IMG/VR virus record: IMGVR_UViG_3300045988_154277
Direction: 5' to 3' (one strand)
Source: a virus
DNA: 64,000 nucleotides
Positions 13,678 to 54,353 of this stretch are shown piece by piece. Position 1 is the first letter of the stretch. Each line of letters starts with the position of its first letter. Position numbers and translations under genes: made by a program. A model generated the notes under the pieces. The model was not told where the DNA came from. It did no database searches and worked only from the letters and a program-made list of their open reading frames with translations.

Positions 13678-13685
13678 ATGCTATG
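13678..13685 (+). promoter_or_regulatory. ATGCTATG motif (late-promoter-like), 56 nt upstream of the ATG at 13742
   Basis: The same octamer lies upstream of three other gene starts in the appropriate orientation. Confidence 0.35.
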
Positions 13686-13741
13686 ACAGATCCCTGCTGT
13701 AGCAAGGACAAATTACGGTGAAATCAACTAGGAGATTTAAT

Positions 13742-14197
13742 ATGGCTGAAGAAGTACAATCGTCTCCGATCGATATGTTGTTCCAGGAGTTCAATCAAGC
13801 AACCCGTGAAACGGATCAGATCCGTGATCAGATCATACAACAACTTGTGAACTCGGTGCCATCGATCAATTATGACAAAGACAGCGCACGCGACATCGAA
13901 GTGAAGATGGGTGTGATCAAAACACTTGATGATATCCTGAAGTCGAAGGAGTCATCTAAAGCGAACAAGATCACAACCTATTTGAAACGGAAGGATACTG
14001 AGAATACCGAGAACTATCAGGAAGCTGTTCTGGCAGTGCTTAGTAACTTGGATCCCGAACAGTTTCGCAAAGGTTCTGTTGCCCTTCAGAATAACGTGGA
14101 TGATCAACTTGAACATCAGTTCGAAGCGTCAGGACAATCACCGATCAAACCAGGTGAAACTGAGATCGACACTCCGATGTCAGTGGAAGAAGCATAA
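13742..14197 (+). CDS. hypothetical acidic protein
   Basis: ATG at 13742 with AGGAGA 6 nt upstream (the ORF-track GTG start is at 13718). Ends at the bidirectional hairpin 14205..14240. Confidence 0.5.
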   Translation: MAEEVQSSPIDMLFQEFNQATRETDQIRDQIIQQLVNSVPSINYDKDSARDIEVKMGVIKTLDDILKSKESSKANKITTYLKRKDTENTENYQEAVLAVLSNLDPEQFRKGSVALQNNVDDQLEHQFEASGQSPIKPGETEIDTPMSVEEA

Positions 14198-14204
14198 GTA
14201 AGTT

Positions 14205-14240
14205 AACATCAGGATGGGATGTTACTCCCATCCTGATGTT
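14205..14240. terminator. bidirectional intrinsic-terminator-like hairpin between convergent genes
   Basis: Perfect 15-bp stem: aacatcaggatggga / tcccatcctgatgtt, 6-nt loop. Confidence 0.6.
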
Positions 14241-14251
14241 ATTTCGTATGC

Positions 14252-14953: not shown

Positions 14954-16606
14954 TTAGTTCAAAACGAACTTGTTGAGATCATCGATCTGATAAGTTGAGA
15001 TCTTCGTACCATGCATGCTCTTCAGAGCATCCGTGGTGAAGGTCGATGTGATATCCACTGCATCCAATGCAAGATGCTTCGCATTCTTCTTCGCATAGAT
15101 GTCGCCCATGCACATGTAACAGAGTCCATGTTGGGCTTGACAATACATCGGAGAACGCACCAAACATGTCTTACCGACGAACTTCTCCATGTTCTGTTCT
15201 GTAAGAAGAACCCAGTTCGAACCATCTTGGATATAGGAACCAAGATAACGTCCGATCTTGTACTTCGAGAAATCCACAGTAAGTCCACGTGTGGTGTGAC
15301 AGTCCTGTTCTGATACGGTAAGGTCCTGAAGAACACGGGTGATGCCTTTGGTTAGTGCACCGCCGAGTTTCGTCTGGTCACCACGGTTGAACGAACCTTT
15401 ACGGGTCTCGTTCGCCATAGCAGGCATCGTCTCTGCGGTCATCCCTTCGGACAGAGAGTTCGGAATAAACACGAAGTTCCCAGTTGTCTTGGAGAACTCT
15501 TCCACACCACCGACCGTCAGATACATCTTCTTACGGGAGATGTTGAAGGGTTTGTCACCGAGCGGCCCATAGAATCGCATCACTTCATCATCTTTGAGAT
15601 AGTTCTTATCCATCGCGATCAAGGTATTCTCGATCTCCATGATGACGTTCGGATCGTTCAACTTATCCTTGTACTTCTCCATCAACTCTTGTTTCACTTT
15701 CCTCACATTCGGATCTGTGGTAAGTGATTTACGAGTATAAGTCGGTACACAGAGTTCAGTGAAGTGTCCGATGAAGTAGAGATCGTTCACATATTGCTTA
15801 TATGCGGATACCGGGATAGAACCGTCCAACATACCTTTGGCAACGATCGTATCGATATAACCGAGATCAAATACGGAGTTCTGATAAGAGATCTTGTCTT
15901 GGAATGGATGAACCAGAAGAAGGTAGTTCAATAAGAACCGACCTACGGTGGTAATCATCTCTTCCTTGCAGTTGATGATCTCACCGGGATTCAGTTGGAA
16001 CGTATCGATCTCACCGAATGCTCTCTGGATCCCGTTGTCCAGGTAGTTCAATGTGAACGAATATGTCTCCTGATCGATATCCGAGACATACACCAGACAG
16101 GACTGACTGCTACCCACAACGGATGCCAAGAACACATCTCCTTCTTGCAAAACACATTTCTGGAAGTGTGTTGCGTTGTAATTCGCAGAGGTGTAGTAAT
16201 CGAAGAGCTCTTGGTTCGTCTTGTTGTAGAGGTCTTTGCTGAACTGATCTGCTTCTTCTTTCTTCTCTGGAGAGAGAGCAAGGTAGTTCCTATACTGGAA
16301 CAGAAGATGGAAAAGACTATCGTTGAACGGATACACCAGTGCGATTTGTCGCATCGCGATCTGTTTCAAAACTTCATCGTCTGTGATATCTTGCTCTTGC
16401 AGAGGAATATACACCGCATCTTCCGGAGGTGTCTTCAATGTAACACGAACAGAATGACGTTCCGGTGTGATCGCTTCGCTCTCATACAGAGGGAAAACAG
16501 GACGTCCACCAACCTGTGTCATGATGTCGATCAAAAATGCACGTTCTAACAGACGTCTCTGGTACTTGATCAAAAACTCTTTCTTATGGATCGGAAGTTC
16601 CATCAC
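14954..16606 (-). CDS. multisubunit RNA polymerase beta-prime subunit fragment (catalytic loop region to the second zinc-binding motif)
   Basis: [42 protein letters not shown] aligns with the E. coli beta-prime bridge helix ([38 protein letters not shown]). [20 protein letters not shown] aligns with [50 protein letters not shown] aligns with [26 protein letters not shown]. Confidence 0.75.
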   Translation of the reverse strand: [550 protein letters not shown]

Positions 16607-17634: not shown

Positions 17635-17664
17635 CGTTGTCTCCTATTTTGGCATAGGATGTGC

Positions 17665-31651: not shown

Positions 31652-31660
31652 GGTTCGATG

Positions 31661-38237: not shown

Positions 38238-38255
38238 TATACAGAACATGTGGCA

Positions 38256-40247: not shown

Positions 40248-40282
40248 ATTATCTGGAAGAGTACTGGGAGAAAGGACAAGAT

Positions 40283-40639
40283 GTGATCTCCAAGAATGAG
40301 GGATTCAACAAATCCTTTCATCTCCAGCTCTTCACAGACAGTCGCTTCCACAAAGCAGATAAGCGATATCGCTTCAATAACCCCAACTGGCACATCTCGT
40401 ATAAAGAGCCAGGTGGTAACCTGGATCAGTATGAGAATCGTGTTATCGATCTGCTTCAACGAAGCGTAACACACGAACTGTTCGGACTCTCATATTGGGA
40501 TCTGATGAATATGGATCTTCCTACTTTTAACAAGATCAGGAACCGTATCTTAGACATCTGTCAGAGACAAGATGAGATGAAGAACCAGATCGATAAAGAA
40601 CAAAAGAAACTGGAAACGGCGCTCCAGAAAGGATATTAA
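40283..40639 (+). CDS. hypothetical protein; reachable by a -1 frameshift from the upstream gene
   Basis: 118 aa with a GTG start and a weak RBS. Its frame is open back to 40190. Confidence 0.4.
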   Translation: MISKNEGFNKSFHLQLFTDSRFHKADKRYRFNNPNWHISYKEPGGNLDQYENRVIDLLQRSVTHELFGLSYWDLMNMDLPTFNKIRNRILDICQRQDEMKNQIDKEQKKLETALQKGY

Positions 40640-40642
40640 CCT

Positions 40643-42529
40643 ATGCCAACTGTACAGCAAGAACCGAATATCGGCTTCGTTCCGATGGATAACAACATCG
40701 GTATGAGCAATCGGTTAGAGAAAGATGAGATGCAGAAGATCATGGTTGAAACACTCGGCGACCTTGCCGATGTGCTGAAAGATCACTGCGGTCCGTATGG
40801 TAAGTATGCAGCGATCACATCTCCTGTGAACCCCTCTGCAGAACCGATCTTCACGAAAGACGGGATCAACATCGTCCGTTCGATCGACTACGTGTCTCAG
40901 GTGCAACAGTTCATCAGGCACACACTGATGTACATGGGATCTCGTATCGAATCTACAGCAGGTGATGGTACGACTTCTGCCATGATCATCATGGCTGTTG
41001 CGATGAAGAACCTGATCCGATCGATCAACGATATTCCCTGCACCTATCAAGATCTGATCTATGTATATCAGAAATACATCCTGGACAAGATGGATGGTGG
41101 ATATAAGGAACATTATGGGTATCATGTCGATAACCAGCAGTTCAAGAACTACGCCAGTCTCCATACAGAGTACGAGGGTGGTGAAGCTTCTACGATGAAG
41201 AAGGGGATCCGTTATATCGCTTACAGTCAAGCGTATACCTCGTCGCATGGTGATATTGAACTTTCCAACATCATCGCTGATCTGTTCGCGAATACTCCGA
41301 AAGAAGTGTGGCACCTCTTCTCTCTGGACAAAGCAGCATATGAAACCAAAGAGCGGTATGTGGTGGATACGGAGTGCTGTCAGTGGAAGGTGGAGGGATG
41401 TCAGCTCTTTCCTCTTACGCAGATGTCAGAGGAGTTCGGCACCGCAGCGATCCGAGAGAACGCTACAACGTTGTTGACGGATCACGGGATATCGGTTGGA
41501 GATGACTATACCAAACCAGTCAGAAATCGAATCGAACAAGCGATCTTGAATGATGAACAGTTGACGGTTCTGGTAACTGGCAACTTAGATACCGCAACCA
41601 ACATGTGGTTGACTGGGTTGTTCCAGCAACATCCGAACCACATGATCAGTATCTACATGATCACTCCTGGAGATTATGGTCTGTGGAACGACATTCCCTA
41701 CATGAAGGTTGCATCAGGACAGCAGCCCACAGAAGTGATGGAGTTCCAACTGGACTACAAGTTCAACGGACGTGATCTCACGATCACCAAAGGTCTGTAC
41801 GAAGACGATGACAAAACTACTTGTCATATGCATCCGTTCTACAAGAACGAAGCATATCCTCTTTACAACGACTTCGTTGCCAGATTGGAACATCAGATCA
41901 AGATCCAGTCTTCTGTTGTGGCTACCAGAGAGTCCAACAACACGGTCGCCCACATGAAGAAGATGCTCAGCAAACTCATCGTGGTGAATCGCAACTACTT
42001 CCGAGTTGGCGGTGCTGCATATGACAATGCTGCCGCGGTTGATGTAGCGGTAGATGTCCTCACAGCAGTGAAGAACACTCTGATCAATGGATGCGCTCTC
42101 GGATCCAACAAGACGTTGTATCAATTCTTCCATAATCGGAAGAAGAATGCGGTTGATCTTGGTATGGATCAGAAGACTTCGAAGATCCTGGTTGCTTTTG
42201 CAGATGCGTTCATGTCTGCGATCGAAGAGACCTTCACTGCGATGTTTCGTTTCGCACCGACGATGCGTCCTGCAGATGATCGTATTAAAGAGATCCTACT
42301 GGAACCTGTTCCGTACAACATCCTGGAACAAGATCAATCCAGTGCAGAGTATCATAACCTTTATGATATGTGCTTCTCTGAACACACGAACCAACCAGCT
42401 GTGCTTCAACCGATCGATACCGATATGGCCATCGTAAGACGGTTCGGTGAAGTGGCTCTTCGGTTCGTGAAAACAGCGCGACTGGTCTCAGAGGGCGGTA
42501 TCTACGTCAACCAAAAGAAGGACTCTTGA
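40643..42529 (+). CDS. divergent chaperonin (GroEL/Cpn60-like)
   Basis: LADVLKDHCGPYGKYAAI, FTKDGINIVRSIDY and TAGDGTTSAMIIMA align with the GroEL N-terminal equatorial domain (LADAVKVTLGPKGRNVVL, ITKDGVSVAREIEL, AAGDGTTTATVLA). Length is 628 aa. Confidence 0.75.
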   Translation: MPTVQQEPNIGFVPMDNNIGMSNRLEKDEMQKIMVETLGDLADVLKDHCGPYGKYAAITSPVNPSAEPIFTKDGINIVRSIDYVSQVQQFIRHTLMYMGSRIESTAGDGTTSAMIIMAVAMKNLIRSINDIPCTYQDLIYVYQKYILDKMDGGYKEHYGYHVDNQQFKNYASLHTEYEGGEASTMKKGIRYIAYSQAYTSSHGDIELSNIIADLFANTPKEVWHLFSLDKAAYETKERYVVDTECCQWKVEGCQLFPLTQMSEEFGTAAIRENATTLLTDHGISVGDDYTKPVRNRIEQAILNDEQLTVLVTGNLDTATNMWLTGLFQQHPNHMISIYMITPGDYGLWNDIPYMKVASGQQPTEVMEFQLDYKFNGRDLTITKGLYEDDDKTTCHMHPFYKNEAYPLYNDFVARLEHQIKIQSSVVATRESNNTVAHMKKMLSKLIVVNRNYFRVGGAAYDNAAAVDVAVDVLTAVKNTLINGCALGSNKTLYQFFHNRKKNAVDLGMDQKTSKILVAFADAFMSAIEETFTAMFRFAPTMRPADDRIKEILLEPVPYNILEQDQSSAEYHNLYDMCFSEHTNQPAVLQPIDTDMAIVRRFGEVALRFVKTARLVSEGGIYVNQKKDS

Positions 42530-42530
42530 T

Positions 42531-42998
42531 ATGCCTACCACCACAGAACAAAATCTGGTGAAAGTATCTCAGTGTAATCTCGGAGATACGATTAAATTCA
42601 AGACGATCAACCCGATCGATGTCAATGTCTACTCCGGTAAGATCATCGGCATCGTGGACTTTGAACGTGCCAGAACTTACGGTGATGTTGCCGCGATCCA
42701 TCTTCAGATGGCTCAAGGTGCATCCAGCATGGGTAAAGACGATCTGATCGATGTGACTCAACAGCAGTTCCTGGTCGTGGAACTATACAACGGTGAGATC
42801 GTTCCTTACGCGTTTGAGTGGTTGCAGTCTCCAGGTGGATCCTACGGATCGGTACAGAAGATCGATGTTGGTGCAACCTACACGATCCGTCTGTACAACG
42901 TGTCGGACACTGACGCGTCGACAGCTCTGTCCATCCTGAAACAGAATGGATATGTCTGTAAACTCTTGAAGAAAACAAGAGATGGTTCCGTCTCTTAA
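42531..42998 (+). CDS. hypothetical protein, coupled to the chaperonin gene
   Basis: 155 aa. Its start is 2 nt after the chaperonin stop. Not GroES-like. Confidence 0.45.
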   Translation: MPTTTEQNLVKVSQCNLGDTIKFKTINPIDVNVYSGKIIGIVDFERARTYGDVAAIHLQMAQGASSMGKDDLIDVTQQQFLVVELYNGEIVPYAFEWLQSPGGSYGSVQKIDVGATYTIRLYNVSDTDASTALSILKQNGYVCKLLKKTRDGSVS

Positions 42999-43006
42999 GT
43001 AAGAAC

Positions 43007-43043
43007 ATCACTAGGGATGTGGATATCCACATCCCTAGTGATC
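43007..43043. terminator. bidirectional hairpin between convergent operons
   Basis: 17-bp stem atcactagggatgtgga / tccacatccctagtgat. Confidence 0.55.
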
Positions 43044-43049
43044 ATATCG

Positions 43050-44066
43050 TTATTTCTTGGAGTTATTGATCTCTTGGATGATCCACTCCGTCATAGAGTA
43101 GAACTTAGCATAATACTGTTCGATACCAACCAACAGAGATGCAGATGAGTTCATCACATATTGAGTGACGTTGAGCAGAAGCGTGATCGACTCTTCCGCA
43201 TTCGAACCTTTCCACATGTTACTCACATCTCTGATGTTCTCGTACAACGTTTCCATGTTGTCAGCGACCGGTTCGATCTCTTTCATGATGGCGGAGACCA
43301 ACGCCTCTGCATAACGAATCTGAGATCCACCATTCCAACCGAACTCTCTGGGATCAACAGGATCCGGAGATGCCGTTTCGATGATGACTTTGCATCCCTC
43401 AGATGTTACAACGACACCATCGCGATAGTGCTGGTGATTGATCTCCCTGGCGAACATATCTCTGGCTGAACGGTAGTCTTTGAATACACCGTCTATGGTT
43501 TGCTTAGCTTTGGCTGGATCGCTTTTAACTGCAGCGAATAGACTGTTCAACTTGCTGTACCAGTCTCCGATGTACACAACAAGATTGCGGAGTGCGGTTA
43601 ATCGCGTAATGAACATCTGGTAATCGAATACATTGGGAACTTGCATCCCTTTGGGGAATGATTGGATCATCATGAGTCGGCTGGCGTTCATCTTCTGTTG
43701 TTTGTTGGGACGCAGGAACCATTCTGTGATCTTGTCCATCAGATAACGGAGGAAGTCCAAGATCTTCTGGATGATGTAGTTCGCTTTATCCTTCAGCCAA
43801 CTTCCCAGGTTAGCAACATAGATGCTCTTCTTGGAGAACATGTCTTTGCCGTCCAGTTCGTGTTTGCCGATGTGAATGGCCGTTGTGAACGACTCACCAC
43901 CAACAGAATCGATCAACGGTTTGCTGTATCCGAACTCTCGAATGGTCTTCAGTACATTGCGGTGATGTTCGAACGTTGCGAAATCCTCCATGATTGACCG
44001 GTACATCTCTTTGGTTCTCTCTTGGAACTCAAAGATATCCATGTAAATAGGAATAAACATATCCAT
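43050..44066 (-). CDS. hypothetical protein sharing the N-terminal SWLK-helix with the HExxH paralogs
   Basis: LGSWLKDKANYIIQKILDFLRYL compares with SWLKQKVLDLLHKFITFVKYL (20209..21558) and SWLKEKINQLIAAVKKFF (45844..47187). Confidence 0.45.
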   Translation of the reverse strand: MDMFIPIYMDIFEFQERTKEMYRSIMEDFATFEHHRNVLKTIREFGYSKPLIDSVGGESFTTAIHIGKHELDGKDMFSKKSIYVANLGSWLKDKANYIIQKILDFLRYLMDKITEWFLRPNKQQKMNASRLMMIQSFPKGMQVPNVFDYQMFITRLTALRNLVVYIGDWYSKLNSLFAAVKSDPAKAKQTIDGVFKDYRSARDMFAREINHQHYRDGVVVTSEGCKVIIETASPDPVDPREFGWNGGSQIRYAEALVSAIMKEIEPVADNMETLYENIRDVSNMWKGSNAEESITLLLNVTQYVMNSSASLLVGIEQYYAKFYSMTEWIIQEINNSKK

Positions 44067-44081
44067 GTGTTATTATCCTCA

Positions 44082-45668
44082 TCAGTTGTTCAGTAGTTGT
44101 GAGAGCTTAGCAGCTCTGAAATAAAGTTTGTTATCCACAAGTTGCTTGGTCTTGTAGATTAGTTGTTCGTACTCTCTTGGGAATCTTCCACTGAGGATCA
44201 TGCCCACTGGTGTTTCCACAAGATAACGAAGTAGTTTGGTGAACGCAGTGATACCATCTGCGATACGGTTCGTAATGGAACGGTTATCGAGCGCTTGTAA
44301 AGTACTCTCGTAATCAGCGATGTAATACGCGAGCATATCGGGAGGAAGGTTCTGCTTGAACACTTTAACAGTCTCCTGCAGAACCAGCTGGCCACGCATC
44401 GGCATCTCATCGTGTTCTTCCAAATGATACATATCACCATTCAGAAGTGTCGTGATGAAAAACGAGAGCTTGGCAACGTTCCAAGCGATACTGCTGTTCT
44501 TCGCGAAGATCCCTGTACCAGCTCTGCTAGCGAGGTTGTAGTCCAGTTTGTTCAGAGAGGACACCAGAGCACTACCGAGTCCGTGTCGTACAACGAACTG
44601 ATCTGCCAGTCTCTCACAGAGTTTGAAGTTGTGAACAGAAACTGCTTGATCGGAGAGTTTCTTACTGGATGTGTTCAGTGCGATCAATGTGGACGTATCT
44701 CCCATATAAGAGAACAGCTGACTCAATACGGCGAATGGGATCGTTGCTATCATAGCAGCATCCATGATCGCCGAGATCAAAATGCCGAATCCATCAAGGA
44801 TGTAAGCTCCAGCAGAGTCTTTTCTATTTTGCAACAGATCATCGGTCTTATCAACAGCGTCTGGTGTATGATGGATCTTACTCAACTCAATCACCATCTT
44901 GGCTTTTTCCTCAACGGTAGCGTGTTGATTGAAATACTCATAAGCAGTCATAACCGTTCCCATCCGCATACACCCATCCAGAGCATGTTCTAACATGGAG
45001 TGAAGATGTCCGATCTCATGGATGACGATAGCAGCGATCTCTTCTGCTGTAAATGGTTGACATTTGTTATGTCCGACTTCCTGGATCAAAAAAGAAGCGA
45101 ATGGATCGAAGTACAACGTGAACGATACCTTACGACCATCGTAGAGATGATCGATTGCATAGATACCGGTATCCTTACGAAGTGAATTCACAAGGTTCTG
45201 GATGTCCTTGACGGTGGTACAGCGTAGGTCGTACTGCTTAATGATCCATTGATAATACTTCTGCATACCAGTACCGGAATACGAATCGATGAACATCTGA
45301 GCATTCCAACCGTAACGGTCACCAATATCCATCACACAAGCGAACCCGTAGTTGATCCCATTGGAGAGAACGATCTTCCTACAGTTCAACCCGGTGGTCT
45401 CTTTGACCAGTTTGCTGAACCTTGGATAGAAGATCTTTTTGGTGTAAGCGATCGTCTCTTTGACACGATCTTGGATAGAGGTGTTGATGTTGTTCCTGTA
45501 ATTGATAATATCTTGAAACAGTTCAACCAACCCTTTCGTCAAAGGAGAACTACGTTGGAAGTCGATCGCTTCCAACGAAGGATATAATCTTGACATAGTG
45601 GAAAGTTCCTTCTGTAGTTTAAGTATAGCATGTGCTGGAAGTGTTGTGAATACACACACCATAAACAA
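44082..45668 (-). CDS. HEIGH zinc-metallopeptidase-like protein
   Basis: AAIVIHEIGHLHSMLEH (HExxH ... E). Confidence 0.5.
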   Translation of the reverse strand: MFMVCVFTTLPAHAILKLQKELSTMSRLYPSLEAIDFQRSSPLTKGLVELFQDIINYRNNINTSIQDRVKETIAYTKKIFYPRFSKLVKETTGLNCRKIVLSNGINYGFACVMDIGDRYGWNAQMFIDSYSGTGMQKYYQWIIKQYDLRCTTVKDIQNLVNSLRKDTGIYAIDHLYDGRKVSFTLYFDPFASFLIQEVGHNKCQPFTAEEIAAIVIHEIGHLHSMLEHALDGCMRMGTVMTAYEYFNQHATVEEKAKMVIELSKIHHTPDAVDKTDDLLQNRKDSAGAYILDGFGILISAIMDAAMIATIPFAVLSQLFSYMGDTSTLIALNTSSKKLSDQAVSVHNFKLCERLADQFVVRHGLGSALVSSLNKLDYNLASRAGTGIFAKNSSIAWNVAKLSFFITTLLNGDMYHLEEHDEMPMRGQLVLQETVKVFKQNLPPDMLAYYIADYESTLQALDNRSITNRIADGITAFTKLLRYLVETPVGMILSGRFPREYEQLIYKTKQLVDNKLYFRAAKLSQLLNN

Positions 45669-45676
45669 AAAACAAA

Positions 45677-45712
45677 TCGTATGGTGGGAGTATTATAGCT
45701 CCCACCATACGA
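45677..45712 (-). terminator. terminator-like hairpin with a T-tract
   Basis: 14-bp stem tcgtatggtgggag / ctcccaccatacga. The minus strand is followed by TTTGTTTTTTGTTT. Confidence 0.55.
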
Positions 45713-45843
45713 AGTCGTTATCATCTCAGATGATACCACACAGTAACATATAGTTCCCTATATGACATCGTGTGATCTCATGCCTGATTAGGTCATCAGA
45801 CATGTGTTTCATTACAATGTACCACATGTGTTCCTCCTTGTTG

Positions 45844-47187
45844 TTATAGTTTTGATTTGATCTGTTTTATCACGTCCCGAACCCAACGACGATCTTCTTC
45901 GTTTAAGTATTCACGGTAATATTTCTGTTCTATCTTCTCTACCAGATCCTCTTCCTTTTTTTGGTTATTTGGGGCTTTGTCCCATTGCGCTAAGAACAGG
46001 TGATAACACTCGTGTACGATAGTTCCCATAAAACTATCTATTTGATCCTTTGTGGCGTTACCGGATGGACCCCACATGTTACTGTACAATCTGTAATTGA
46101 CATATATGTCTACAGAGCCAGACATGTTGTTCTTAGCATAACACCAACCGTACGGAGGGCGTTCTTCAGCAGTATCGTCGCTAAGACCCCACGTCATAGG
46201 TCTACGATTTGTTATAATTACATTTCGGACAGTAACAGATCCTCCAAAGAGGTGCTCCATCTTCTTTAGGATATGTGATGGGATCTTAACAGTAACCTCT
46301 ACTGGTATATCTCGATTAAACAATCTATCTATATCCAATAGATACGATACACCGATAGAGCATAGTTCAGTCGATGCTCGTGATATGGTTGTGACTATCA
46401 GTATAACTTGTTTGACACCATCCTGTATCCCGACATCCATAATGTCATCTCTAAAGATGTCATTCGCTTGTTTTGATATACCTAATATCGCCTCTTTGAA
46501 TTCTTCTTTCGTCATATCGTCTGATATTGTTAACTTAAATTCTTCCAATGCGAATACTAGGGTATCTGAAAGGAGTGCTATGTGACCAAGATCACTTGCT
46601 ATTGATCTTGCCAGATCACGAACATCTCCACGGCGATAACCAACAACTCCCTTTTGTTTTTCACAAAGCTGATGTGCTTTATCAACGTAACTATCTAGTT
46701 TTCGTTTAAAAGCATCAAATGGTGTTGATTTACATCTAGTACGCATGAACACATGGGCATCAGTGAATACTTCTGCTACCTCATCCATATATTTATACGG
46801 TATTAGTATAACACCATCTCTAGCTTGAGACATAAGTAAGAAAAGATCACTCATACTCTTCTTTACGAAATCAGAGTTACTCGTCTTAGGTGTTTCTTTG
46901 ATACCAAGTACTTTACACACCTTATGCCGAATAGCACCGAAGAACTTCTTAACAGCAGCAATCAGTTGGTTGATTTTCTCTTTCAACCAACTGATGAACT
47001 TACTGATCGCTTCTTTCGCTTGATCAACTAAGCTCTCTTCACCTATTAGTTCACGGAAGTGTTCTGTGTAACCATACTTGTTATAGTAGTTGACCACAAC
47101 GCATGCGTTGTGATACACATCGTAACCTTGTATGATTTGGTTACAGATAGTGTTGATATCGTTTAGGTATTTTAATTCAGTTTCCAT
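45844..47187 (-). CDS. HExxH zinc-metallopeptidase-like protein; paralog of 20209..21558
   Basis: GTIVHECYHLFLAQWD, WCYAKNNMSGS, and the N-terminal FISWLKEKINQLI helix. Confidence 0.5.
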   Translation of the reverse strand: METELKYLNDINTICNQIIQGYDVYHNACVVVNYYNKYGYTEHFRELIGEESLVDQAKEAISKFISWLKEKINQLIAAVKKFFGAIRHKVCKVLGIKETPKTSNSDFVKKSMSDLFLLMSQARDGVILIPYKYMDEVAEVFTDAHVFMRTRCKSTPFDAFKRKLDSYVDKAHQLCEKQKGVVGYRRGDVRDLARSIASDLGHIALLSDTLVFALEEFKLTISDDMTKEEFKEAILGISKQANDIFRDDIMDVGIQDGVKQVILIVTTISRASTELCSIGVSYLLDIDRLFNRDIPVEVTVKIPSHILKKMEHLFGGSVTVRNVIITNRRPMTWGLSDDTAEERPPYGWCYAKNNMSGSVDIYVNYRLYSNMWGPSGNATKDQIDSFMGTIVHECYHLFLAQWDKAPNNQKKEEDLVEKIEQKYYREYLNEEDRRWVRDVIKQIKSKL

Positions 47188-47995
47188 GTTCTAGATCCTC
47201 TTTAAGTAATTCATCCCAATAAGTATCGGTTGCGATGTCGTTGTCTTTTACCATAGCCTCGTATGGGATAGACCTGATCAGCTCCAGTTGCTCTTTGGTC
47301 AACAGTTCTTTGGAACAGTGCCAGCTCCGAAAGTAGTTGAAACGTGCTTTTGTGTGAAACTTCATATAGAGCCAGACAGTGTTGTTGTCTTCTGCTCTTT
47401 CGATGACCAGACGGTCACCTTCTTTGAGTCGTGCAAATTGCTCCAGGAACGCTTTGCAGTTGCAGAAACTCAGCTCACCGGCACTTACCCGGATCATCTT
47501 GCATTGCCATTCCAGAATCTCAAGCCTCCGAAGCTGCTCTCCCTCCAAATTGGATTTATGAAAAGAATGGGTTTCCGTGATGGCTTCGGGACCATTCATC
47601 AAATATCGTCTTACGACGATAGTCACCGTGTTATAGTCTTCTTTGAAAGATACCAGATCAACACGCTGATGATCCGCCACATACAACAGTTGATAACAGA
47701 GCGATTCAAACTCACTCTGTTCCGCACGTTTGTTTGCCAGCTTAAGTTGCTCTTCCTTGATTCGGACGATCCGTTCTGCGTTCAGATGTTTCTTTTGGAA
47801 TGTATATGCAACATCATAGGTGGGTAAGCTGATACCATCATGTTCTTTCCGAACGATGATCTCGAACTTGTCATCGAACTCCTGTATGCTGGTGATATAG
47901 ATGTGCTTGATCATATCATTCTGAGTTCGATCAATGTCGCGGATAACTGTGTCGAACAGTTTAGTAGACGAGGGTTTTTCAGAATGGTAAAACAT
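47177..47995 (-). CDS. hypothetical protein
   Basis: 272 aa with an AAGGAG RBS. Lies 70-100 nt downstream (leftward) of promoter-like motif 48066..48099. Confidence 0.45.
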   Translation of the reverse strand: MFYHSEKPSSTKLFDTVIRDIDRTQNDMIKHIYITSIQEFDDKFEIIVRKEHDGISLPTYDVAYTFQKKHLNAERIVRIKEEQLKLANKRAEQSEFESLCYQLLYVADHQRVDLVSFKEDYNTVTIVVRRYLMNGPEAITETHSFHKSNLEGEQLRRLEILEWQCKMIRVSAGELSFCNCKAFLEQFARLKEGDRLVIERAEDNNTVWLYMKFHTKARFNYFRSWHCSKELLTKEQLELIRSIPYEAMVKDNDIATDTYWDELLKEDLEHGN

Positions 47996-48065
47996 GCGTG
48001 ACTCCTTTATGATTGTTCTTATTGGATGTTTGATGGTTATATCAATTCGATGATATACTTCAATT

Positions 48066-48099
48066 AGTTATATATACTTCAAAAGACCTTCATTTACAC
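48066..48099 (-). promoter_or_regulatory. early-promoter-like motif about 70-100 nt upstream of ORF 47177..47995
   Basis: agttatatatacttcaaaagaccttcatttacac. Confidence 0.5.
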
Positions 48100-48120
48100 C
48101 TGCTATACTGGACATAAAGA

Positions 48121-48156
48121 CTGTACACGTGATGGTTTTATCCATCACGTGTACAG
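48121..48156 (-). terminator. hairpin downstream of the acidic repeat gene
   Basis: 15-bp stem ctgtacacgtgatgg / ccatcacgtgtacag. Confidence 0.5.
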
Positions 48157-48195
48157 TAGGGTAGACCTCTAATAGTCCTATACTAGAACCTTAGA

Positions 48196-50295
48196 TCAAA
48201 GCCATCTGAAAAGACGGTCTTGGTTCAGTTCTTTCTCAGCCGATTCGTTGGGGATGGTCTCCGGGGGAGTCTCCACAACTTCACGGTGGGGTTCGGTCAC
48301 AGCGTTCGGAACTTCCGGATCGCCGTTGGGATCGACGCCAGGAGCTGGTTCCTCCACAGGCTTCGGTTCACCTTCACCACCAGGAAGACCTTCCGGTTCC
48401 ACAACACCAGCTTCGTTGGTCAGAGCAGGCTGCGGGGGAACGAGAGGTTCTTCTTCGATCGGAGAACCATCCGGGTTGACAGGGCTCACCGGAGGAGTGA
48501 CTTCCGGGTCAACGGGAGCAGGAGTTGCAGGTTCCGCAGGAGGAACGATGGGTTCTTCCACAACGGTACCTTCCGGAGTGACGGCAGGTTCCCCTTCGTT
48601 CCGATAGACACGACGACGATTGGTCGGGTTGCCAGCGGACGGAGCCGGTTCACCACCGACAGGACCTTCCGTGCCTTCTTCCAGAGCACCAGCCGGATCC
48701 GCATTGCCATCACCAGACTTGCCTTCCCCTTCCGTATCGTCCGGAAGCGTGCTCGCCGGGTCTTCCATCTGTTTCTCAGGTTCGAACTCATGCTCGGTCA
48801 CATCACCACCCTGGAACTCATTGAAGACGCGACGACGATTGGTCGCATCACCAGTGGTGGAAGATGCACTTGGTTCGTTGCCGGAGGTCGGAGCAGGATC
48901 GCCTTTGCCTTCTCCTTCGCTTTCATCGGGGAGGGTACCAGCAGGATCATCCATCTGTTCTTCCGGTTTGAACTCATGTTCCGTGACATCGCCGCCTTCG
49001 AACTCGTTCTTGGCATGACGACGGACTTTGCCTCTGCGTTTGTTACCGAGAGGTTTCTGCTCGGTGACTTCTTCCACAGGAGTTGCAACCGGAGCCTGTT
49101 CTGGAACTTCGGCTTTCTTCAGCTTACCGCACATCGCGACAACCTGGTCAACCATGTGGCTGCAAGCCGTTCCATAAAGCTGAGCCACCGTACCAACCGT
49201 GGCAGCGAACTTACGGCACTCTTCGATTTCACCATCCGCCTTCGCATCACCTTCCATCGCGTTGATCTGTTCGACTTTCGCACAGACATCATCTTTGCAT
49301 TTACAGACAACGTCTTTGGCTTTGGCGATGTTCTCACATTTGCCGATCACAGCAGCGAGAGCAAGAGTCGCTTCTTTCAGGTTCGCAGGAGTCCAACGGA
49401 AGACCGCCATCTCCTGTTCCTGAGGAGCATCGGCAGGACCTTCGACCGGGATCGCTTCCGCCGTCTCGCGCTGTTCCAGATCTTCCTGAGACTTACCTTC
49501 TTCAGCAGCCGGAGTTTCGGCGACAGGAGCAGACATCACTTCTTCCGGAGCAGGAGCTTCCGCCTCTGCTACAGCAGGAGACTCTTCCACGATCGCGACC
49601 TTCTCTTCGACCTGATAACCGAGTGTCTTGAGAGCCGGTTCGATCTCAGCAAGCTTGGCGGGATCCAGAGTCGGCATCGCAGCATTGATCGTTTCCAGAG
49701 CTTTGATGCGTTCCATGAACACAGGCTGAGTAAATCCGAAGACTTCGTCCGTAGCGAACGCAGCCGCATCGATCGCTTCGATGTTGCCGAGCAGATCGTT
49801 GGCAAGGTCGTTCAGAGTTTCCTGCTGACATTTGGAAGTTTCACAGAGTTTGTCGAGGTAATCGCAAACGGTGTGAGCCAGGGAGTGGAAGAACTCACAG
49901 ACTTTGGCATACGCATTCTCAACGACGTTGTCGATGCCTTCGCAGCAGAGTTTGCCGACCTGACGAGTATTGAGAGAGGTGACGTTCGGGATTTCGATGC
50001 CGATCGCATTCGCAAGCTGGTTGCCGTCATTGAAGACCGCAAGCAGACCTTCCGTAGCGCCGTGCTCTGTGAACAGAGCTTTCGCCTGTTTCAGAGTGGC
50101 AACCGCATCATAGACCGCTTTGTCCTGGCAGATGATACGGCTGATCTTGTTGCCCTTCATTTCAAGGGCAACTTGACAGTTCTGCATGTTGGCGAGATGG
50201 ATCCAGAAGAACCCCTTGCTGACAACTTTCTTCGCAGTAGAGTGCTGCTTGGGAGCAAGGATGCTCTTGAGATTGAGGTTGATTCCGTTACTCAT
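48196..50295 (-). CDS. acidic Ala/Glu/Pro-rich protein with internal repeats, encoded by a GC-rich DNA segment
   Basis: 699 aa. Contains a tandem ~75-aa repeat (NEFEGGDVTEHEFKPEEQMDDPAGTLPDESEGEGK / NEFQGGDVTEHEFEPEKQMEDPASTLPDDTEGEGK) and two Cys-containing N-terminal subdomains. The plus-strand ORF 48220..50340 is judged to be an antisense artefact. Confidence 0.5.
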   Translation of the reverse strand: MSNGINLNLKSILAPKQHSTAKKVVSKGFFWIHLANMQNCQVALEMKGNKISRIICQDKAVYDAVATLKQAKALFTEHGATEGLLAVFNDGNQLANAIGIEIPNVTSLNTRQVGKLCCEGIDNVVENAYAKVCEFFHSLAHTVCDYLDKLCETSKCQQETLNDLANDLLGNIEAIDAAAFATDEVFGFTQPVFMERIKALETINAAMPTLDPAKLAEIEPALKTLGYQVEEKVAIVEESPAVAEAEAPAPEEVMSAPVAETPAAEEGKSQEDLEQRETAEAIPVEGPADAPQEQEMAVFRWTPANLKEATLALAAVIGKCENIAKAKDVVCKCKDDVCAKVEQINAMEGDAKADGEIEECRKFAATVGTVAQLYGTACSHMVDQVVAMCGKLKKAEVPEQAPVATPVEEVTEQKPLGNKRRGKVRRHAKNEFEGGDVTEHEFKPEEQMDDPAGTLPDESEGEGKGDPAPTSGNEPSASSTTGDATNRRRVFNEFQGGDVTEHEFEPEKQMEDPASTLPDDTEGEGKSGDGNADPAGALEEGTEGPVGGEPAPSAGNPTNRRRVYRNEGEPAVTPEGTVVEEPIVPPAEPATPAPVDPEVTPPVSPVNPDGSPIEEEPLVPPQPALTNEAGVVEPEGLPGGEGEPKPVEEPAPGVDPNGDPEVPNAVTEPHREVVETPPETIPNESAEKELNQDRLFRWL
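48600..49035. repeat. tandem ~225-bp direct repeat inside the acidic protein gene
   Basis: ttcgaactcatgctcggtcacatcaccaccctggaactcattgaagacgcgacgacgattggtcgc (about 48784..48850) recurs as ttgaactcatgttccgtgacatcgccgccttcgaactcgtt (about 48968..49010). gacgacgattggtcg recurs near 48610. Confidence 0.6.
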
Positions 50296-50326
50296 AATCC
50301 TATTCCTTTGTATAAGGTGAAATGTT

Positions 50327-51292
50327 TCAGTTTACTGTGAGTATATTGTTCCACGTATCGATAAGCATACCGCTCATCTGTGTTACATAGGATTGAAAGA
50401 CGACCGCACATTTGAACACGTAGCTGGCACGTAAGCTCTTGTTGTTGAGCTCGTATTGCAGCTGTTGTGCACCTGCATCATCTCCCAATGCGATGTATTT
50501 ATCGATCGTACGGATGGAAGCGGTTACATCGTTCTCCAACGAGTTCTTCAGATCGTTCAGTTCAGCAGCTTGTGTACAAAGCATCGCAACACGATTGGTG
50601 ATCTGTTTCAGATGCTCCACGGACCAGTCACTGCTCTTCATCGTCATACGACCTGCTCTGATCTTGTAAGGATTCACTTCATAGATCACTCCGTCTTTGA
50701 CCGTGTATCCGAATTGGGTGATCCCTGTTTTGAAGGTAGCAGCATCTTGGATCGAAGGAACTTTAGACAACTCCATCACGTCGTGATAGAGGATCTCGAG
50801 ACTACTGATCACTTCAACCGACTCCTTATAAGTAGGAAGATAAAGATCGACAGTCTGCAACTTCAGATCAGCGTCGTTGGATCGATTCTTATCGAACTCT
50901 CTCTGCAGGTTGTAGAGAGTCGTCCTCGTTCTGGAGTTCGTATCGAACATCCGTTTGAAGAACGCTACGATGCTAGCCCACAGATTCATGAAGAAGTTCT
51001 TAAGTGACAGAAGTGCATTCCGGAACATCGATGACAGTCCTTCCTGAGAACTGTTCATCAGTTTCTCACTTCCCAGAGCATCTCGGAGCACGATATCCTT
51101 CATACCCGCATAATCGATCAAAGAGTGGATATTGAAGGTCTTCAAGATCTCATCCTGAATGGCGTGGAAGTTGTTTACAACAACACGTTCCAAGTCATCC
51201 ATAGTGGAGATCTGAGAAGCGAGTTCTTCGATCGACCAGTTGCAGATAGGAGGAGGCGCTGGGAATGCTTGTTTCAAAGCGTTCGTGATCAT
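50327..51292 (-). CDS. hypothetical protein
   Basis: 321 aa. First of four coupled genes 50327..54351. Confidence 0.45.
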   Translation of the reverse strand: MITNALKQAFPAPPPICNWSIEELASQISTMDDLERVVVNNFHAIQDEILKTFNIHSLIDYAGMKDIVLRDALGSEKLMNSSQEGLSSMFRNALLSLKNFFMNLWASIVAFFKRMFDTNSRTRTTLYNLQREFDKNRSNDADLKLQTVDLYLPTYKESVEVISSLEILYHDVMELSKVPSIQDAATFKTGITQFGYTVKDGVIYEVNPYKIRAGRMTMKSSDWSVEHLKQITNRVAMLCTQAAELNDLKNSLENDVTASIRTIDKYIALGDDAGAQQLQYELNNKSLRASYVFKCAVVFQSYVTQMSGMLIDTWNNILTVN

Positions 51293-52239
51293 ACCTCAGT
51301 ATCCTCCATAGTCAGATGATCCTGGAGATATTTGGTGTATGCATACAGGGTTTCCAGTGTTTCCACATTGGAGATATCCGCTTGCTGGATAGGAAGATCC
51401 AGATCGGTATCCGTATCCAGACAGATCAGATGAGTCATCTTGAGAAGACCGTATTTGACCGTGAATCGACTGGATGCTTCCCGGAGTTCCTGTTTCATCC
51501 AACCCCAACGGAATGCACTGGACGGAAGTTTCAGAACATCTTCTTTGCGTTCGATCTTCGCCTGATGTGCGATCAGAAGGAGAACCTTCAGATACTCGAT
51601 CACCGCTTGGATCTTCGTATGGTAGTCCACAGCGATGCTGTCGTTGCTGTTCGTCTTCTGGAAACAGCCTTTGATCTTCTCATCCACGATGTCCATGAAG
51701 AGGAGGAATCGTTCCTGTGGGATCAGATACTTTGAGATATCGAAATCCTGGTTCCAAGTCTGGAACCACTCTTCACTGTTCCTCAGGAGAGAAGATTTGA
51801 ATGCATTGAACTGAAGCGTATCGTCCGCACCAGGATCTTGTTTGTGGAGCAAGAGCAGGTTGTTGAACATCGTCAAACTGTTCGTCGGAATAGAGAACGG
51901 GTAGTTCTTGTTCTTCTCAGCGAGGGAACGCCAACGTCTGGAGATCTTGCTGATTACATTGAACAAGCTCTGGTAAACGAACACCTTGATCGCCTGCTGA
52001 TACGAAGTGGCCAGTTCTCGGAGTTGCTCATCGTTCAAGTTCGTGATATCACGACGATACACATCAGCGTAGATCCGCATCATGTTCTCATCGAACGACG
52101 GAGTAACATCTCCGATGTTCCACACCGCTACCATATCGCAGATCCACTGGAACTCCACATATCTGCGTTGTGACATCTGAGCGGTCATGGTAGCAACCTG
52201 AGCTGCTCGTTTTAATCCAATATCGAATCCCATGATCAA
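51289..52239 (-). CDS. hypothetical protein
   Basis: 316 aa. Stop and start overlap with its neighbours. Confidence 0.45.
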   Translation of the reverse strand: MIMGFDIGLKRAAQVATMTAQMSQRRYVEFQWICDMVAVWNIGDVTPSFDENMMRIYADVYRRDITNLNDEQLRELATSYQQAIKVFVYQSLFNVISKISRRWRSLAEKNKNYPFSIPTNSLTMFNNLLLLHKQDPGADDTLQFNAFKSSLLRNSEEWFQTWNQDFDISKYLIPQERFLLFMDIVDEKIKGCFQKTNSNDSIAVDYHTKIQAVIEYLKVLLLIAHQAKIERKEDVLKLPSSAFRWGWMKQELREASSRFTVKYGLLKMTHLICLDTDTDLDLPIQQADISNVETLETLYAYTKYLQDHLTMEDTEV

Positions 52240-53192
52240 TCCTCCATATAGCTGCTGATCTTGAGATCGAGATCTCGGATCATATCGTTATAAGTGTTGA
52301 TGATCTTCACAGCTTTCCGGTATTCATCGCTGTTGGGATCAATACCATTCAGCTGAAGTTTCAGAAGGTCAGTGTGGTTCTGCAACCACTCTTTCTCCTG
52401 GACCATCTTCTGGTATTTCAGGTTGCGCATCAGAACACCCCACTCTCCGAAATAACGGAAGATAGAGGCGAGGATCGTAGCGCCACCCTCGATGAGACCG
52501 AACTTGTTCTTGACGGTCTTGATCATATCGTTCACTCGATCCTGATCATCGAGCAACGTTGTATCGCTTGACTTGCGAAGAGTATCGATCTCGGTGATCA
52601 ATTGATTCGCACTGGATGGCAGAGAACCAACCTTAAGCAGTTCAACAACGCCGAGTTTATACTTGTTGATGAACTCATACCGATATGGTTTCGGTTGGTT
52701 GAGTTCATGAACACCTTCATTGACGATGATCTCGTACAACACTCCATCGAACAGATAAACAGCGTAGTTGCTGAAGATCTGTGCCTGTTCCACGATACGG
52801 AACACCGCCAGCTGGCTGACTTTCGCATTGTAGATCGTAGTGAACTTCTCGTTGAAGAGAACATTCACATTACGTTCGATCATCTGAAGAACCGTTGTAA
52901 GGTTCTGAGCAAGCATAACGAACGGATCGAATCCAACCTTCTGAGAGCGCAACAGCTTGTTGATCTCTACACAAGTGTTGCAGAAGAGGTTGCCTGGAAC
53001 GGCGAATGTATTGATCCTCTGAGAGAACTGTTCCTTATCCGATCCAGTAATGTTGTTAAGTGTATTGATGAAGTTGGTAAGCTGTCCCTCAACCAGTTTA
53101 AGATTCTCTTTGAAGTCTTCTTTCGAGATCTTCCGCATCTTCTTGGATTCGACAGCAACCACTTCACCTACGTCTTTCAATATATCTCGCAT
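52236..53192 (-). CDS. hypothetical protein
   Basis: 318 aa. Stop and start overlap with its neighbours. Confidence 0.45.
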   Translation of the reverse strand: MRDILKDVGEVVAVESKKMRKISKEDFKENLKLVEGQLTNFINTLNNITGSDKEQFSQRINTFAVPGNLFCNTCVEINKLLRSQKVGFDPFVMLAQNLTTVLQMIERNVNVLFNEKFTTIYNAKVSQLAVFRIVEQAQIFSNYAVYLFDGVLYEIIVNEGVHELNQPKPYRYEFINKYKLGVVELLKVGSLPSSANQLITEIDTLRKSSDTTLLDDQDRVNDMIKTVKNKFGLIEGGATILASIFRYFGEWGVLMRNLKYQKMVQEKEWLQNHTDLLKLQLNGIDPNSDEYRKAVKIINTYNDMIRDLDLKISSYMED

Positions 53193-53205
53193 AGTGGCTA
53201 CTCCT

Positions 53206-54285
53206 TTAGAATCTGGGACTCATACCCTGGGAGAAAGTCTGCATGATCTCTGCGAGATTGAAGCTGTCCTTCCCCTTGGCTCCCACTTTATTCAACATCT
53301 GGAACGTGTAAGTTCCCTTCACGTCGATGCCGTTGAAATACATATCGACGGTTCCACCCATCACGTCGACAACAACCACGAAGATCGCCATCGTCTTCAA
53401 CATGAAACTCTGACGATAACCTTTGTCTGCAAAGTTCGCACCGACCTCTTTGCAAGCTTCGGTAAAGGTTGGTTTGTCCATGATGATCATGGAGTTCGCC
53501 AAGTTTCCGGATGTGGGTTTCATACCGATCAGGCGAAGTGCCCAGTTGAAAAGCTTATTGTGCTGGTTGGTAAGGATCGCAGCCAGAACACCGGACTTGT
53601 CTTCCTTCAGGAGTTTTTCCTGCTTCTTGAGCAGGTCTCTGGAGAGCATGAAGTCGTTCCAGAAACTGATCTCCTTCGCCTCCACCTGTTTCCAACGAAC
53701 GGACATCGGCGGATGGAAGTTGATGTTCATGAAACCTTTGCAGATGTTGGAAGACAAGATGATCGGGATCAGCTGGACATACACGTATACTTTAAACGTG
53801 TTCACCTTGCCGCCCCCTTCAAGCGTAAGATCGACCTCCAAAAGACGTCCGGTAACCAGTCGCTGGCTGTCCTTCTCCAGGTCCACCACTTGTGACTCCA
53901 TAGAGACGTTCATCTCTTTGATCGTGGAGTTCAGAGTCTCCTGACCGAAGTCATCCGCGATGATCGTGACGGTATCTTGAAGGGTTTCTGTGGCGATGAT
54001 ACCGTACAGTTCTTTCACCGTCTTTCCGCCAACCACTACATTTTGCATATTCAAAGCGGTCATGATGTAGCTAGCATAAAGCTGGTTCAGGGTACCGAGC
54101 AACGGTAACGCGATGTCGTCTTGAGCGACACTTTCCTGCAGATACACTCGACTGATGATGTTCGCAGGTTTGTTCATTTGTGTCAGCGATACTGTCTGCA
54201 TCTCGTTGACCTTATTCACACCTTGTGCGACGATCTTCAAGATTTCAGACAGTCCTGCTGGCAGCAGATCTGGGATAGAAGCCAT
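53206..54285 (-). CDS. hypothetical protein
   Basis: Start refined to MASIPDLL at 54285 (GTGAGGA RBS). The ORF-track version extends to 54351. Confidence 0.45.
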   Translation of the reverse strand: MASIPDLLPAGLSEILKIVAQGVNKVNEMQTVSLTQMNKPANIISRVYLQESVAQDDIALPLLGTLNQLYASYIMTALNMQNVVVGGKTVKELYGIIATETLQDTVTIIADDFGQETLNSTIKEMNVSMESQVVDLEKDSQRLVTGRLLEVDLTLEGGGKVNTFKVYVYVQLIPIILSSNICKGFMNINFHPPMSVRWKQVEAKEISFWNDFMLSRDLLKKQEKLLKEDKSGVLAAILTNQHNKLFNWALRLIGMKPTSGNLANSMIIMDKPTFTEACKEVGANFADKGYRQSFMLKTMAIFVVVVDVMGGTVDMYFNGIDVKGTYTFQMLNKVGAKGKDSFNLAEIMQTFSQGMSPRF

Positions 54286-54344
54286 ATGAAATATCCTCAC
54301 TTTGCGGGATAAAATACCCCTTGATTTTGTGGATTCAATGCAGC

Positions 54345-54353
54345 ATAGCATGT
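54345..54353 (-). promoter_or_regulatory. ATGCTATG motif on the minus strand, 60 nt upstream of the refined start at 54285
   Basis: The minus strand reads gacATGCTATGctg. Confidence 0.35.

Follow-up and report, generated by a model that had tools for sequence, protein, structure and literature searches.

A TATG-ending motif as a probable late promoter in an uncultured phiKZ-like jumbo phage of the human gut

We analyzed a 64,000-nucleotide (nt) stretch of viral DNA, IMG/VR record IMGVR_UViG_3300045988_154277 (hereafter the window), for the short motif ATGCTATG, or CATGCTATG when the C that frequently precedes it is counted. Judged by its sequence, the window is part of a phiKZ-like (Chimalliviridae) jumbo phage of ~279 kb, uncultured and coming from human gut metagenomes. 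We consider it highly probable that (C)ATGCTATG is a promoter and start-site element read by the phage's own non-virion multisubunit RNA polymerase, and that it serves late genes and perhaps middle ones as well. It can best be seen as an extended form of the phiKZ TATG late promoter that is predictable from sequence, with start sites, timing and polymerase contacts inferred by analogy to phiKZ; on the same analogy, CATGCTATG would probably mark where the transcripts of structural genes begin. The original prediction, made from the letters of the window, had already put forward a second promoter class with a link to the TATG of phiKZ, and this reading is supported by position and strand bias, replication in relatives, conservation, and structural-gene context.

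The motif lies upstream of genes and on their strand

The word ATGCTATG occurs five times in the window, where Markov models of orders 1 to 4 predict 1.3-1.9 copies and dinucleotide shuffles 1.5; five copies or more were reached in 1 of 100 shuffles. The sites are given below, with the span of the eight-base word in brackets and distances counted from the terminal G.

6669-6677 (6669-6676), minus strand: CATGCTATG, promoter-like site one base after terminator hairpin 6678-6713; G at 6669, 31 nt before ATG 6638, ribosome-binding site (RBS) AAGAGGG
13678-13685 (the same), plus strand: ATGCTATG; G at 13685, 57 nt before ATG 13742, RBS AGGAG
32928-32935 (the same), plus strand: ATGCTATG; G at 32935, 27 nt before ATG 32962, RBS GAAGGAGG; within the insertion 32901-33389
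35629-35637 (35630-35637), plus strand: CATGCTATG; G at 35637, 32 nt before ATG 35669
54344-54352 (54344-54351), minus strand: CATGCTATG; G at 54344, 59 nt before ATG 54285

The copies at 13678, 32928 and 35630 had been listed correctly in the original prediction, which had placed the leftward copy at 54344-54351 1-2 nt off and had missed the one at 6669 on the minus strand. It had also cautioned that eight bases are few enough to be enriched by chance, a concern that is met by the position of the copies and by the replication in relatives. After start refinement, all five are noncoding and on the same strand as the next gene, within the 4.0% of strand-positions that make up oriented upstream noncoding DNA (p=1.0e-7). 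Starts were refined to 6638, 54285 and 45596 on RBS evidence. The mechanical open reading frame (ORF) start at 6671 was judged over-extended because the in-frame ATG at 6638, with its RBS, lies past the motif. From 54285 and 45596, the products have the same lengths as those called for their orthologues in relatives, so that the start at 54285, already refined in the original prediction, agrees with both its RBS and its orthologues.

With unrefined starts, an unbiased 8-mer scan ranked ATGCTATG first (4/5 upstream, p=6e-6), above the AT-rich early motif described below and the RBS. The degenerate form ATSCTATG gave a still smaller p value, with 7 of its 8 copies in the oriented upstream noncoding fraction (p=1.3e-9). 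Where no C precedes it, TATG showed no upstream enrichment in the window (18/391), and the one-mismatch variants of ATGCTATG taken as a set were not enriched (40 found against 44.5 expected). The close relative L003, used for the DNA left of the window, carries a sixth copy 52 nt left of the window's first base and 81 nt before gene 36-1106, again back-to-back with an early motif. The putative leaders would thus measure 19-59 nt in the window and 81 nt at this sixth copy, with the start codon preceded by an RBS. In intergenic regions flanked by genes of one strand, the motif is always on that strand, and it often follows a terminator hairpin.

The motif is replicated and conserved in relatives

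Loci of relatives were collected around three parts of the window (L004-L007, L008-L011 and L012-L014). The most distant are L009, L010, L011 and L013, which together make up 86 kb with automatic gene calls and share 54-71% protein identity with the window (71-54% for L009, L010 and L011, 57% for L013). These four loci had no role in proposing the motif. In their upstream DNA, CATGCTATG ranks first among 9-mers, all 7 of its 7 copies being oriented upstream (p=5.6e-10), and CATGCTAT ranks first among 8-mers. The sites at 54344, 35630, 45624, 13678 and 17653 retain the motif while their flanks diverge or cease to align.

Weighted by site group, the logo is c(-8) A T G/c C T A T G(+1) y y n A(+5), its positions -7 to +1 being partly set by site selection and only its flanks being unbiased. 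Conservation from -8 to -4 amounts to C 73%, A 100%, T 100%, G or C, and C 100%, of which -8 alone is unbiased because -7 to -4 were fixed by the site-selection pattern; independent support for the upstream extension comes from the k-mer enrichment. An A at +5 is present in 86% of the site groups. Variants of (C)ATGCTATG include ATCCTATG, ATGGTATG and ATGCTATA. A TATG core ends all five exact copies as well as the ATCC and ATGG variants, and TATA takes its place at 45624 and at the 13678 site of L006. Many sites read ATGC-T-ATGC, a short direct repeat.

Sites and the genes behind them

The motif and its conserved variants head the operons of the chaperonin, of phiKZ_IP-like head proteins, of virion proteins (phrog_3013) and of the gp79/gp80-like polymerase; the late class of the downstream units is assigned solely from gene function. 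The 6669 site, unchanged in L003, L004, L005, L006 and L007, heads a leftward virion-protein operon running from 6638 to 1248 with matches to phrog_3289, phrog_3013 (virion structural protein) and phrog_3245. The hairpin next to it (6678-6713) has a perfect 18-bp stem with compensatory changes in relatives. At 13678, L005 retains the motif despite a replaced 5' flank, and L006 reads ATGCTATA. The site at 35629 heads the rightward operon 35669-42998, which reaches the chaperonin and SH3-domain genes; its first gene encodes 391 amino acids (aa), and L013 retains GTCATGCTATGCTTAA there amid diverged intergenic DNA. Leftward of 54344 is an operon of four tandem paralogues of ~320-360 aa, down to 50327, a family with phiKZ_IP (internal-head-protein) and phrog_5750 matches, although within the window only 50327-51292 itself matches. 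At this site, the intergenic regions of L009, L010 and L011 are unalignable with that of the window, yet they hold CATGCTATG in the right orientation and at 60-64 nt from the start; L008 reads CATGGTATG.

Variant sites and weaker candidates are the following.

45624-45632, minus strand: CATGCTATA, A for terminal G; 28 nt before ATG 45596, RBS AGAAGGAA; downstream of terminator 45677-45712
17653-17663, minus strand: CACATCCTATG; G at 17653, 19 nt before ATG 17634
13633-13643, minus strand: second copy of CACATCCTATG, 235 nt before the HNH gene 12373-13398; upstream of hairpin 13484-13518 and of early motif 13444-13453
62252-62260, plus strand: ATGGTATGC; G at 62259, 19 nt before ATG 62278; back-to-back with early motif 62205-62214 (minus strand)
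54369-54376, plus strand: CAACTATG, weak candidate for the tail-tube gene 54418; G at 54376, 42 nt upstream
54379-54387: ATGCTAGAC, partial copy upstream of 54418, without the TATG core
37440-37449, plus strand: TCTATCTATG, weak candidate a few bases past terminator 37402-37435; 33 nt before ATG 37482
50386-50393, minus strand: ATCCTATG, possible internal promoter inside the 3' end of gene 50327-51292; 91 nt before ATG 50295

At the orthologues of the 45624 site, which precede a 504-aa gene, L009 and L013 have CATGCTATG, and L012 and L014 have CATGCTATA. The 17653 site heads an operon encoding a gp79-like protein and the gp80-homologous virion RNA polymerase subunit (14954-16606). Its CACATCCTATG is invariant in L004, L005, L006 and L007, and the second copy at 13633 is kept in 4 of 4 of these relatives. 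In L006, a 9-nt insertion separates the 17653 motif from the RBS; because this insertion is tolerated, the spacing between motif and gene appears to be free, as it would be for a start site.

Three partial copies had been noted in the original prediction, and all exist in the places given (TCTATCTATGCGG at 37440-37452, which is the fuller word around TCTATCTATG, ATGGTATGC at 62252 and ATGCTAGAC at 54379), but as motif sites they fare unequally. The one at 62252 is kept as GATG(G/A)TATGC in relatives and reads GATGATATGC in L008 and L009. At 37440, TCTATCTATG is retained in L012 and L014 and absent from L013, and the site was demoted to a weak candidate because of this loss. As for gene 54418, a tail-tube assignment based on PF23971, CAACTATG is a better candidate than the ATGCTAG noted earlier because it retains the TATG core that ATGCTAG lacks; it is kept in L008, with equivalents in L011 (CATGGTATG), L010 (CTTATG) and L009 (CATGCAATG). 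This weak candidate is the only link of the motif to the tail-tube gene and to the gene of the gp87-like virion protein. The conservation of 50386 in L008 and L009 is ambiguous because the site lies in coding sequence. A further site-like word, CAACTATGC at 20170, has no conserved counterpart in L007, L005 or L006 and was treated as chance.

The core of the motif is that of phiKZ late promoters

The late promoter of phiKZ is 5'-TATG-3' with G as +1, and all four bases are required in vitro; the published work confirms the TATG core that the original prediction had named for the late promoters of the non-virion polymerase. Changes at -4 and +2 matter little, and the downstream region matters without a consensus being known there. 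A pocket of gp123 binds the non-template strand at TATG, and these promoters, with P119L as the model, are transcribed by a five-subunit non-virion RNA polymerase; phiKZ-like phages transcribe without the host polymerase. According to a 2020 review, the middle and late promoters of these phages are not predictable bioinformatically.

By analogy, the non-virion polymerase of the present phage would read (C)ATGCTATG and drive late, possibly middle, structural-gene units, the last four bases of the motif would correspond to the phiKZ core, and transcription would start at the terminal G, or at A in some sites. As the sequences suggest, the bases from -8 to -4 (C, A, T, G/C, C), together with pyrimidine-pyrimidine-N-A at +2 to +5, may add specificity. 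In divergent regions, TATATATTAC points away from the motif and would serve the neighbouring early unit as its promoter for the virion polymerase. At 17653 and 62252, the ATG is 19 nt from the G and the Shine-Dalgarno sequence begins ~8 nt after it; because of these 19-nt leaders, the geometry fits a start at the motif and poorly fits one downstream of a -10-like box.

phiKZ itself carries traces of the longer motif. P119L (TTGCTATG) matches 7 of the 8 bases of ATGCTATG, as published oligonucleotides and the priming RNA place the start at the G of ...TATTGCTATG|TAGACAG. In the 140 kb of phiKZ examined (NC_004629), 3 of 7 copies of ATGCTATG are in upstream intergenic DNA (p 0.002), 28-46 nt before gp76.2, gp94 (internal head protein) and gp143 (virion protein), with the terminal G at 70912, 94329 and 145658; that of P119L is at 117615. 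The upstream enrichment of CTATG in phiKZ also exceeds that of other TATG words. In 79 other chimallivirus gp123 loci (589 kb), ATGCTATG is absent where 7-14 copies are expected, so that in the present sample the extended consensus looks clade-specific, with a trace in phiKZ. TATG in these loci numbers 2548 against ~3330 expected from an order-2 Markov model, ~25% less, a deficit that may reflect avoidance of spurious late start sites.

It is possible, and we propose it tentatively and with some doubt, that CATGC (-8 to -4) and the pyrimidine-pyrimidine-N-A after the start form a true second recognition element in the gut clade, of which phiKZ would keep a faint trace in P119L (TTGCTATG), in ATGCTATG at gp94 and gp143, and in the mild excess of CTATG before genes.

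Alternative explanations

Chance recurrence of a short word in AT-rich intergenic DNA, for which the shortness of eight bases, the one shuffle in a hundred with five copies and the unenriched one-mismatch variants could be invoked, is hardly credible given that all five copies are oriented upstream (p=1e-7), that the word ranks at the top of unbiased scans of two independent data sets, and that it is kept at orthologous sites in otherwise unalignable intergenic DNA. An operator of a phage DNA-binding regulator is the most serious alternative, albeit an unlikely one: the regulator would bind CATGC, with TATG coincidental or a separate element. Conservation does run 4-5 bases upstream of TATG, where the phiKZ polymerase mechanism does not need it, many sites contain the ATGC-T-ATGC direct repeat, and the phiKZ literature allows for further factors in middle and late promoter choice. 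On the other hand, all four TATG bases are among the most invariant positions, the motif has a strict orientation relative to the gene, the spacing to the RBS varies (19-59 nt) in the manner of a start site, no candidate protein is known, and P119L, with 7 of the 8 bases, is transcribed by purified phiKZ polymerase with no factor added.

An action in RNA, as an endoribonuclease processing site or a leader element of read-through transcripts, would agree with the strand specificity, the placement in 5' leaders and the frequent position just downstream of hairpins (6669, 37440, 45624). We consider it very improbable, for the divergent regions with 13678, 32928, 35630, 54344 and 62252 have no same-strand upstream gene to supply a precursor, the cassette at 32901-33389 needs its own promoter and has the motif as its sole conserved upstream element, and the same core belongs to a proven DNA promoter. 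Slightly less credence still is given to host sigma-70/sigma-A extended -10 promoters (TGnTATAAT, here TG-C-TATGCT). ATGCTATGCT can indeed be read as TG, one base and TATGCT, a 4/6 match to TATAAT, and 45624 scores as TTCACA-17-TATACT with an upstream TG; this is, however, the only site with a -35-like partner and sigma-70 match. The likeness to bacterial extended -10 promoters is superficial and the pattern of conserved positions incompatible with them: fewer than half of the site groups have T at the last position of the -10 box, where it should hardly vary, a G for which such a box has no use is nearly invariant, -7 is always A and -4 always C, and the ATCCTATG (ATCC) variants lack TG. Moreover, sigma-70-like matches are depleted at 30000-49999 (20 against 35 +/- 7 in shuffles), a start ~7 nt downstream would hit the Shine-Dalgarno sequence at 17653 and 62252, and phiKZ-like phages are independent of the host polymerase.

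Several observations nevertheless weigh against a promoter of the non-virion polymerase. The units at 54418, 37482 and 38361, structural or co-directional, have weak TATG or TATA candidates only, and the downstream genes 13742, 32962, 35669 and 44082 carry no functional assignment; Pfam and tblastn searches with 5199, 38361, 44082 and others returned no function. Three starts were refined once the motif was known, with RBS support for all of them and support from the gene calls of relatives for 54285 and 45596. The presumed start at the terminal G is carried over from phiKZ, in which positions outside TATG are reported to be unconserved and a change at -4 to have a weak effect; the conserved -8 to -4 stretch is not predicted by the phiKZ mechanism and could reflect an extra factor instead. 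Finally, the clade's gp123 homologue was not found in a search seeded with phiKZ gp123 or in a profile scan of viral contigs.

Early motif and divergent regions

The leftward partner of the back-to-back pairs is an AT-rich motif of early type, TATATATTAC, found at the following places in the window.

13444-13453, minus strand: early-type motif TATATATTAC, leftward partner of a back-to-back pair
8335, 12298, 20146, 31299, 32865, 35592, 45743, 48067 and 62205: other copies of TATATATTAC

Matches number 12 against 2.8 expected, lie with one exception on the strand that carries the leftward genes, and are conserved in relatives. They head the genes of the DNA polymerase, of the ligase/RNase H and of the topoisomerase, and a block of small genes at 20-32 kb; in this 12-kb early block, six intergenic regions have hairpins and no copy of the late-type motif was found. 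The motif has the features of early promoters of jumbo-phage virion polymerases, being ~10 nt long, AT-rich, conserved, phage-specific and placed before early operons. The early-promoter regions 32865-32905 and 62205-62245 share an identical ~33-nt block, ATATATATTCGAAATATTTTGAACTACACTTTT, which is kept in relatives.

Three divergent intergenic regions had been described in the original prediction as joining a leftward early-like motif to a rightward ATGCTATG in a regular bidirectional control architecture. The three pairs are present (13444/13678, 32865/32928 and 35592/35630, with gaps of 224, 53 and 28 nt), and two more were found, 62205/62252 with a gap of 37 nt and one just left of the window. 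The arrangement thus recurs in five cases, but these pairs are neighbouring divergent early and late units rather than one control device. Copies of the motif are also found between co-directional genes, and the region 54288-54417 has late-type candidates on both strands. The earlier emphasis on rightward units was incidental, as sites at 6669, 54344, 13633, 17653 and 45624, and the candidate at 50386, point leftward.

The long intergenic region 13399-13741 is peculiar in that the 13633 motif, a 15-bp hairpin (13484-13518) and the early motif all point at the HNH gene 12373-13398. This gene could have two promoters, one early and one of late type; alternatively, a short leader transcript could end at the hairpin. 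On the other strand of the same region, a hairpin at ~13690-13709 directly follows the putative start at 13685 and is kept with altered stem bases in L005 (ATCCCTGC-TATA-GCAGGGAT) and L006; it may be a 5' leader structure.

A strain-specific cassette carries its own copy of the motif

32901-33389, plus strand: strain-specific cassette of ~490 nt with a ATGCTATG promoter, an RBS and one ORF

This cassette is missing from L002, L012, L013 and L014. It lies between the early-promoter block and an older bidirectional terminator (33396-33432), and the 32865/32928 pair exists because the cassette was inserted beside that block. The insertion shows that the motif moves, as a promoter, together with its gene. 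Ten consecutive G (33014-33023) split the ORF into 32962-33025 and 33045-33380, and one extra G makes it a continuous ORF of 139 aa; the run could be a homopolymer sequencing error or a slippery or phase-variable tract.

The phage, its relatives and its polymerase genes

The window has a GC content of ~45%, and no nucleotide match to it was retrieved from GenBank phages, among which megablast and tblastn with the chaperonin region were both empty. Exact look-ups with the proteins of the two edge genes gave no extension of the window. Its proteins share 25-35% identity with those of phiKZ-like jumbo phages. Among them are a 1442-aa virion protein resembling gp87, the homologue of the virion RNA polymerase subunit gp80 (E 1.6e-54), a gp50-like DNA polymerase and the chaperonin. 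Near-identical and graded relatives sit on contigs of 250-279 kb, at least one of them labelled as human gut metagenome, and the IMG/VR contig UViG_3300045988_142450 is 92-97% identical to the window, differing by insertions and deletions. None of the contigs compared matches the window exactly, the closest showing 92-99% identity.

The segment 6108-9780 of L003 corresponds to ~0.2-3.9 kb left of the window. It contains the gene of a gp55-like non-virion polymerase subunit (6936-8126, E 1.8e-30), ~2 kb left of the window, with an early motif in front and an HNH gene behind, the order of gp55/gp56 in phiKZ. Before it is a 518-aa gene without family match, at the place where phiKZ has the nuclear-shell gene gp54. 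A further 10 kb leftward in L003 contain early-type minus-strand genes only and no copy of the motif, which fits the model and adds no sites. Of the non-virion polymerase subunits, the gp55 homologue was thus found and gp123 was not retrieved, no search having been made for the remaining ones. Two large proteins adjoining the window were considered and rejected as gp123, as was P0279, which belongs to a food-metagenome phage with 52% GC and without ATGCTATG. None of the 79 loci of the profile scan was taken to be of this clade, since its early motif, abundant in the clade's loci, is nearly absent from them. The TATG pocket of phiKZ gp123 includes F151, H185, H331, Y399, Y406, K158 and K190. 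Among 21 other chimallivirus gp123 homologues, S144, F151 and H331 never vary, and S334 and Q466 hardly do.

Other features of the window were noted. Terminator-like hairpins are twice as frequent as in shuffles at 30000-49999 (27 against 13.5), and many intergenic hairpins have perfect stems of 14-21 bp; scans with Rfam and for tRNA gave no matches in the window. Two ORFs, one of 699 aa on the minus strand and one of 706 aa on the plus strand, overlap nearly fully at 48196-50340, where GC is 54%; neither has a PHROG match, and the gene callers choose the minus-strand ORF in relatives. HNH endonuclease content is variable across 8659-13398: ORF 8659-12321 fuses an N-terminal HNH region (residues ~17-321) with the large subunit of topoisomerase II, a second HNH gene follows at 12373-13398, the alignment of L006 omits 11085-13534 of the window, and L004 and L007 also deviate there.

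Significance and comparison with known systems

Non-virion polymerases of the phiKZ type start at a four-base TATG consensus despite thousands of other TATGs in the genome. In the present clade, late-type sites with 8-9 conserved bases can be found by sequence and are conserved across wide divergence, and they offer a predictive model of promoters, of use in annotating the transcription units of uncultured gut jumbo phages. They also come in natural variants, with G or C at -5 and G or A at +1, and give a concrete hypothesis of upstream contacts for the phiKZ enzyme, whose structures and in vitro assays are available. If a second recognition element were true, the clade would be a high-information version of the four-base promoter in which the missing specificity determinant could be mapped. 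The cassette suggests that strain-specific genes enter these genomes carrying their own copy of the promoter.

Like the late promoters of phiKZ, the sites described here have a TATG core at the 3' end, lie tens of nt before structural genes and often after a terminator, lack a -35/-10 architecture and share the work with an AT-rich early class. They differ in that phiKZ conserves four bases whereas 8-9 contiguous bases, with a bias at +2 to +5, are conserved here, so that the sites of this clade are findable by sequence alone, and in that the terminal base can be A. The split of gene classes mirrors that of phiKZ, where genes of the non-virion polymerase are early and those of the virion polymerase middle. 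phiKZ middle promoters have a weak AAanTTACc motif near -24, some with TATG at the start site; virion polymerase genes are middle in phiKZ, and the gp79/gp80-like operon here has the CACATCCTATG sub-variant, which departs from the motif only by G to C at -5 and by a preceding CAC. Late and middle promoters might be distinguished by their ATGC and ATCC sub-variants, a speculation drawn from two or three examples.

The late promoters of AR9 (PBS1-like), AACA-N6-T(A/G), are similar in that their polymerase is a multisubunit phage enzyme whose fifth subunit is sigma-like, and in having a short start-proximal consensus. In AR9, however, the sigma-like subunit reads template-strand uracils, phages of this type encode no pseudo-nucleus, and the AACA-N6 pattern is not present in the sites of this clade. 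Lastly, the cassette resembles phage morons and the single-gene units TU118, TU123 and TU129 of phiKZ, being a single gene with its own promoter among opposite-strand genes and present in one strain; it differs from these by using the phage's late-type promoter and by borrowing an older bidirectional terminator.

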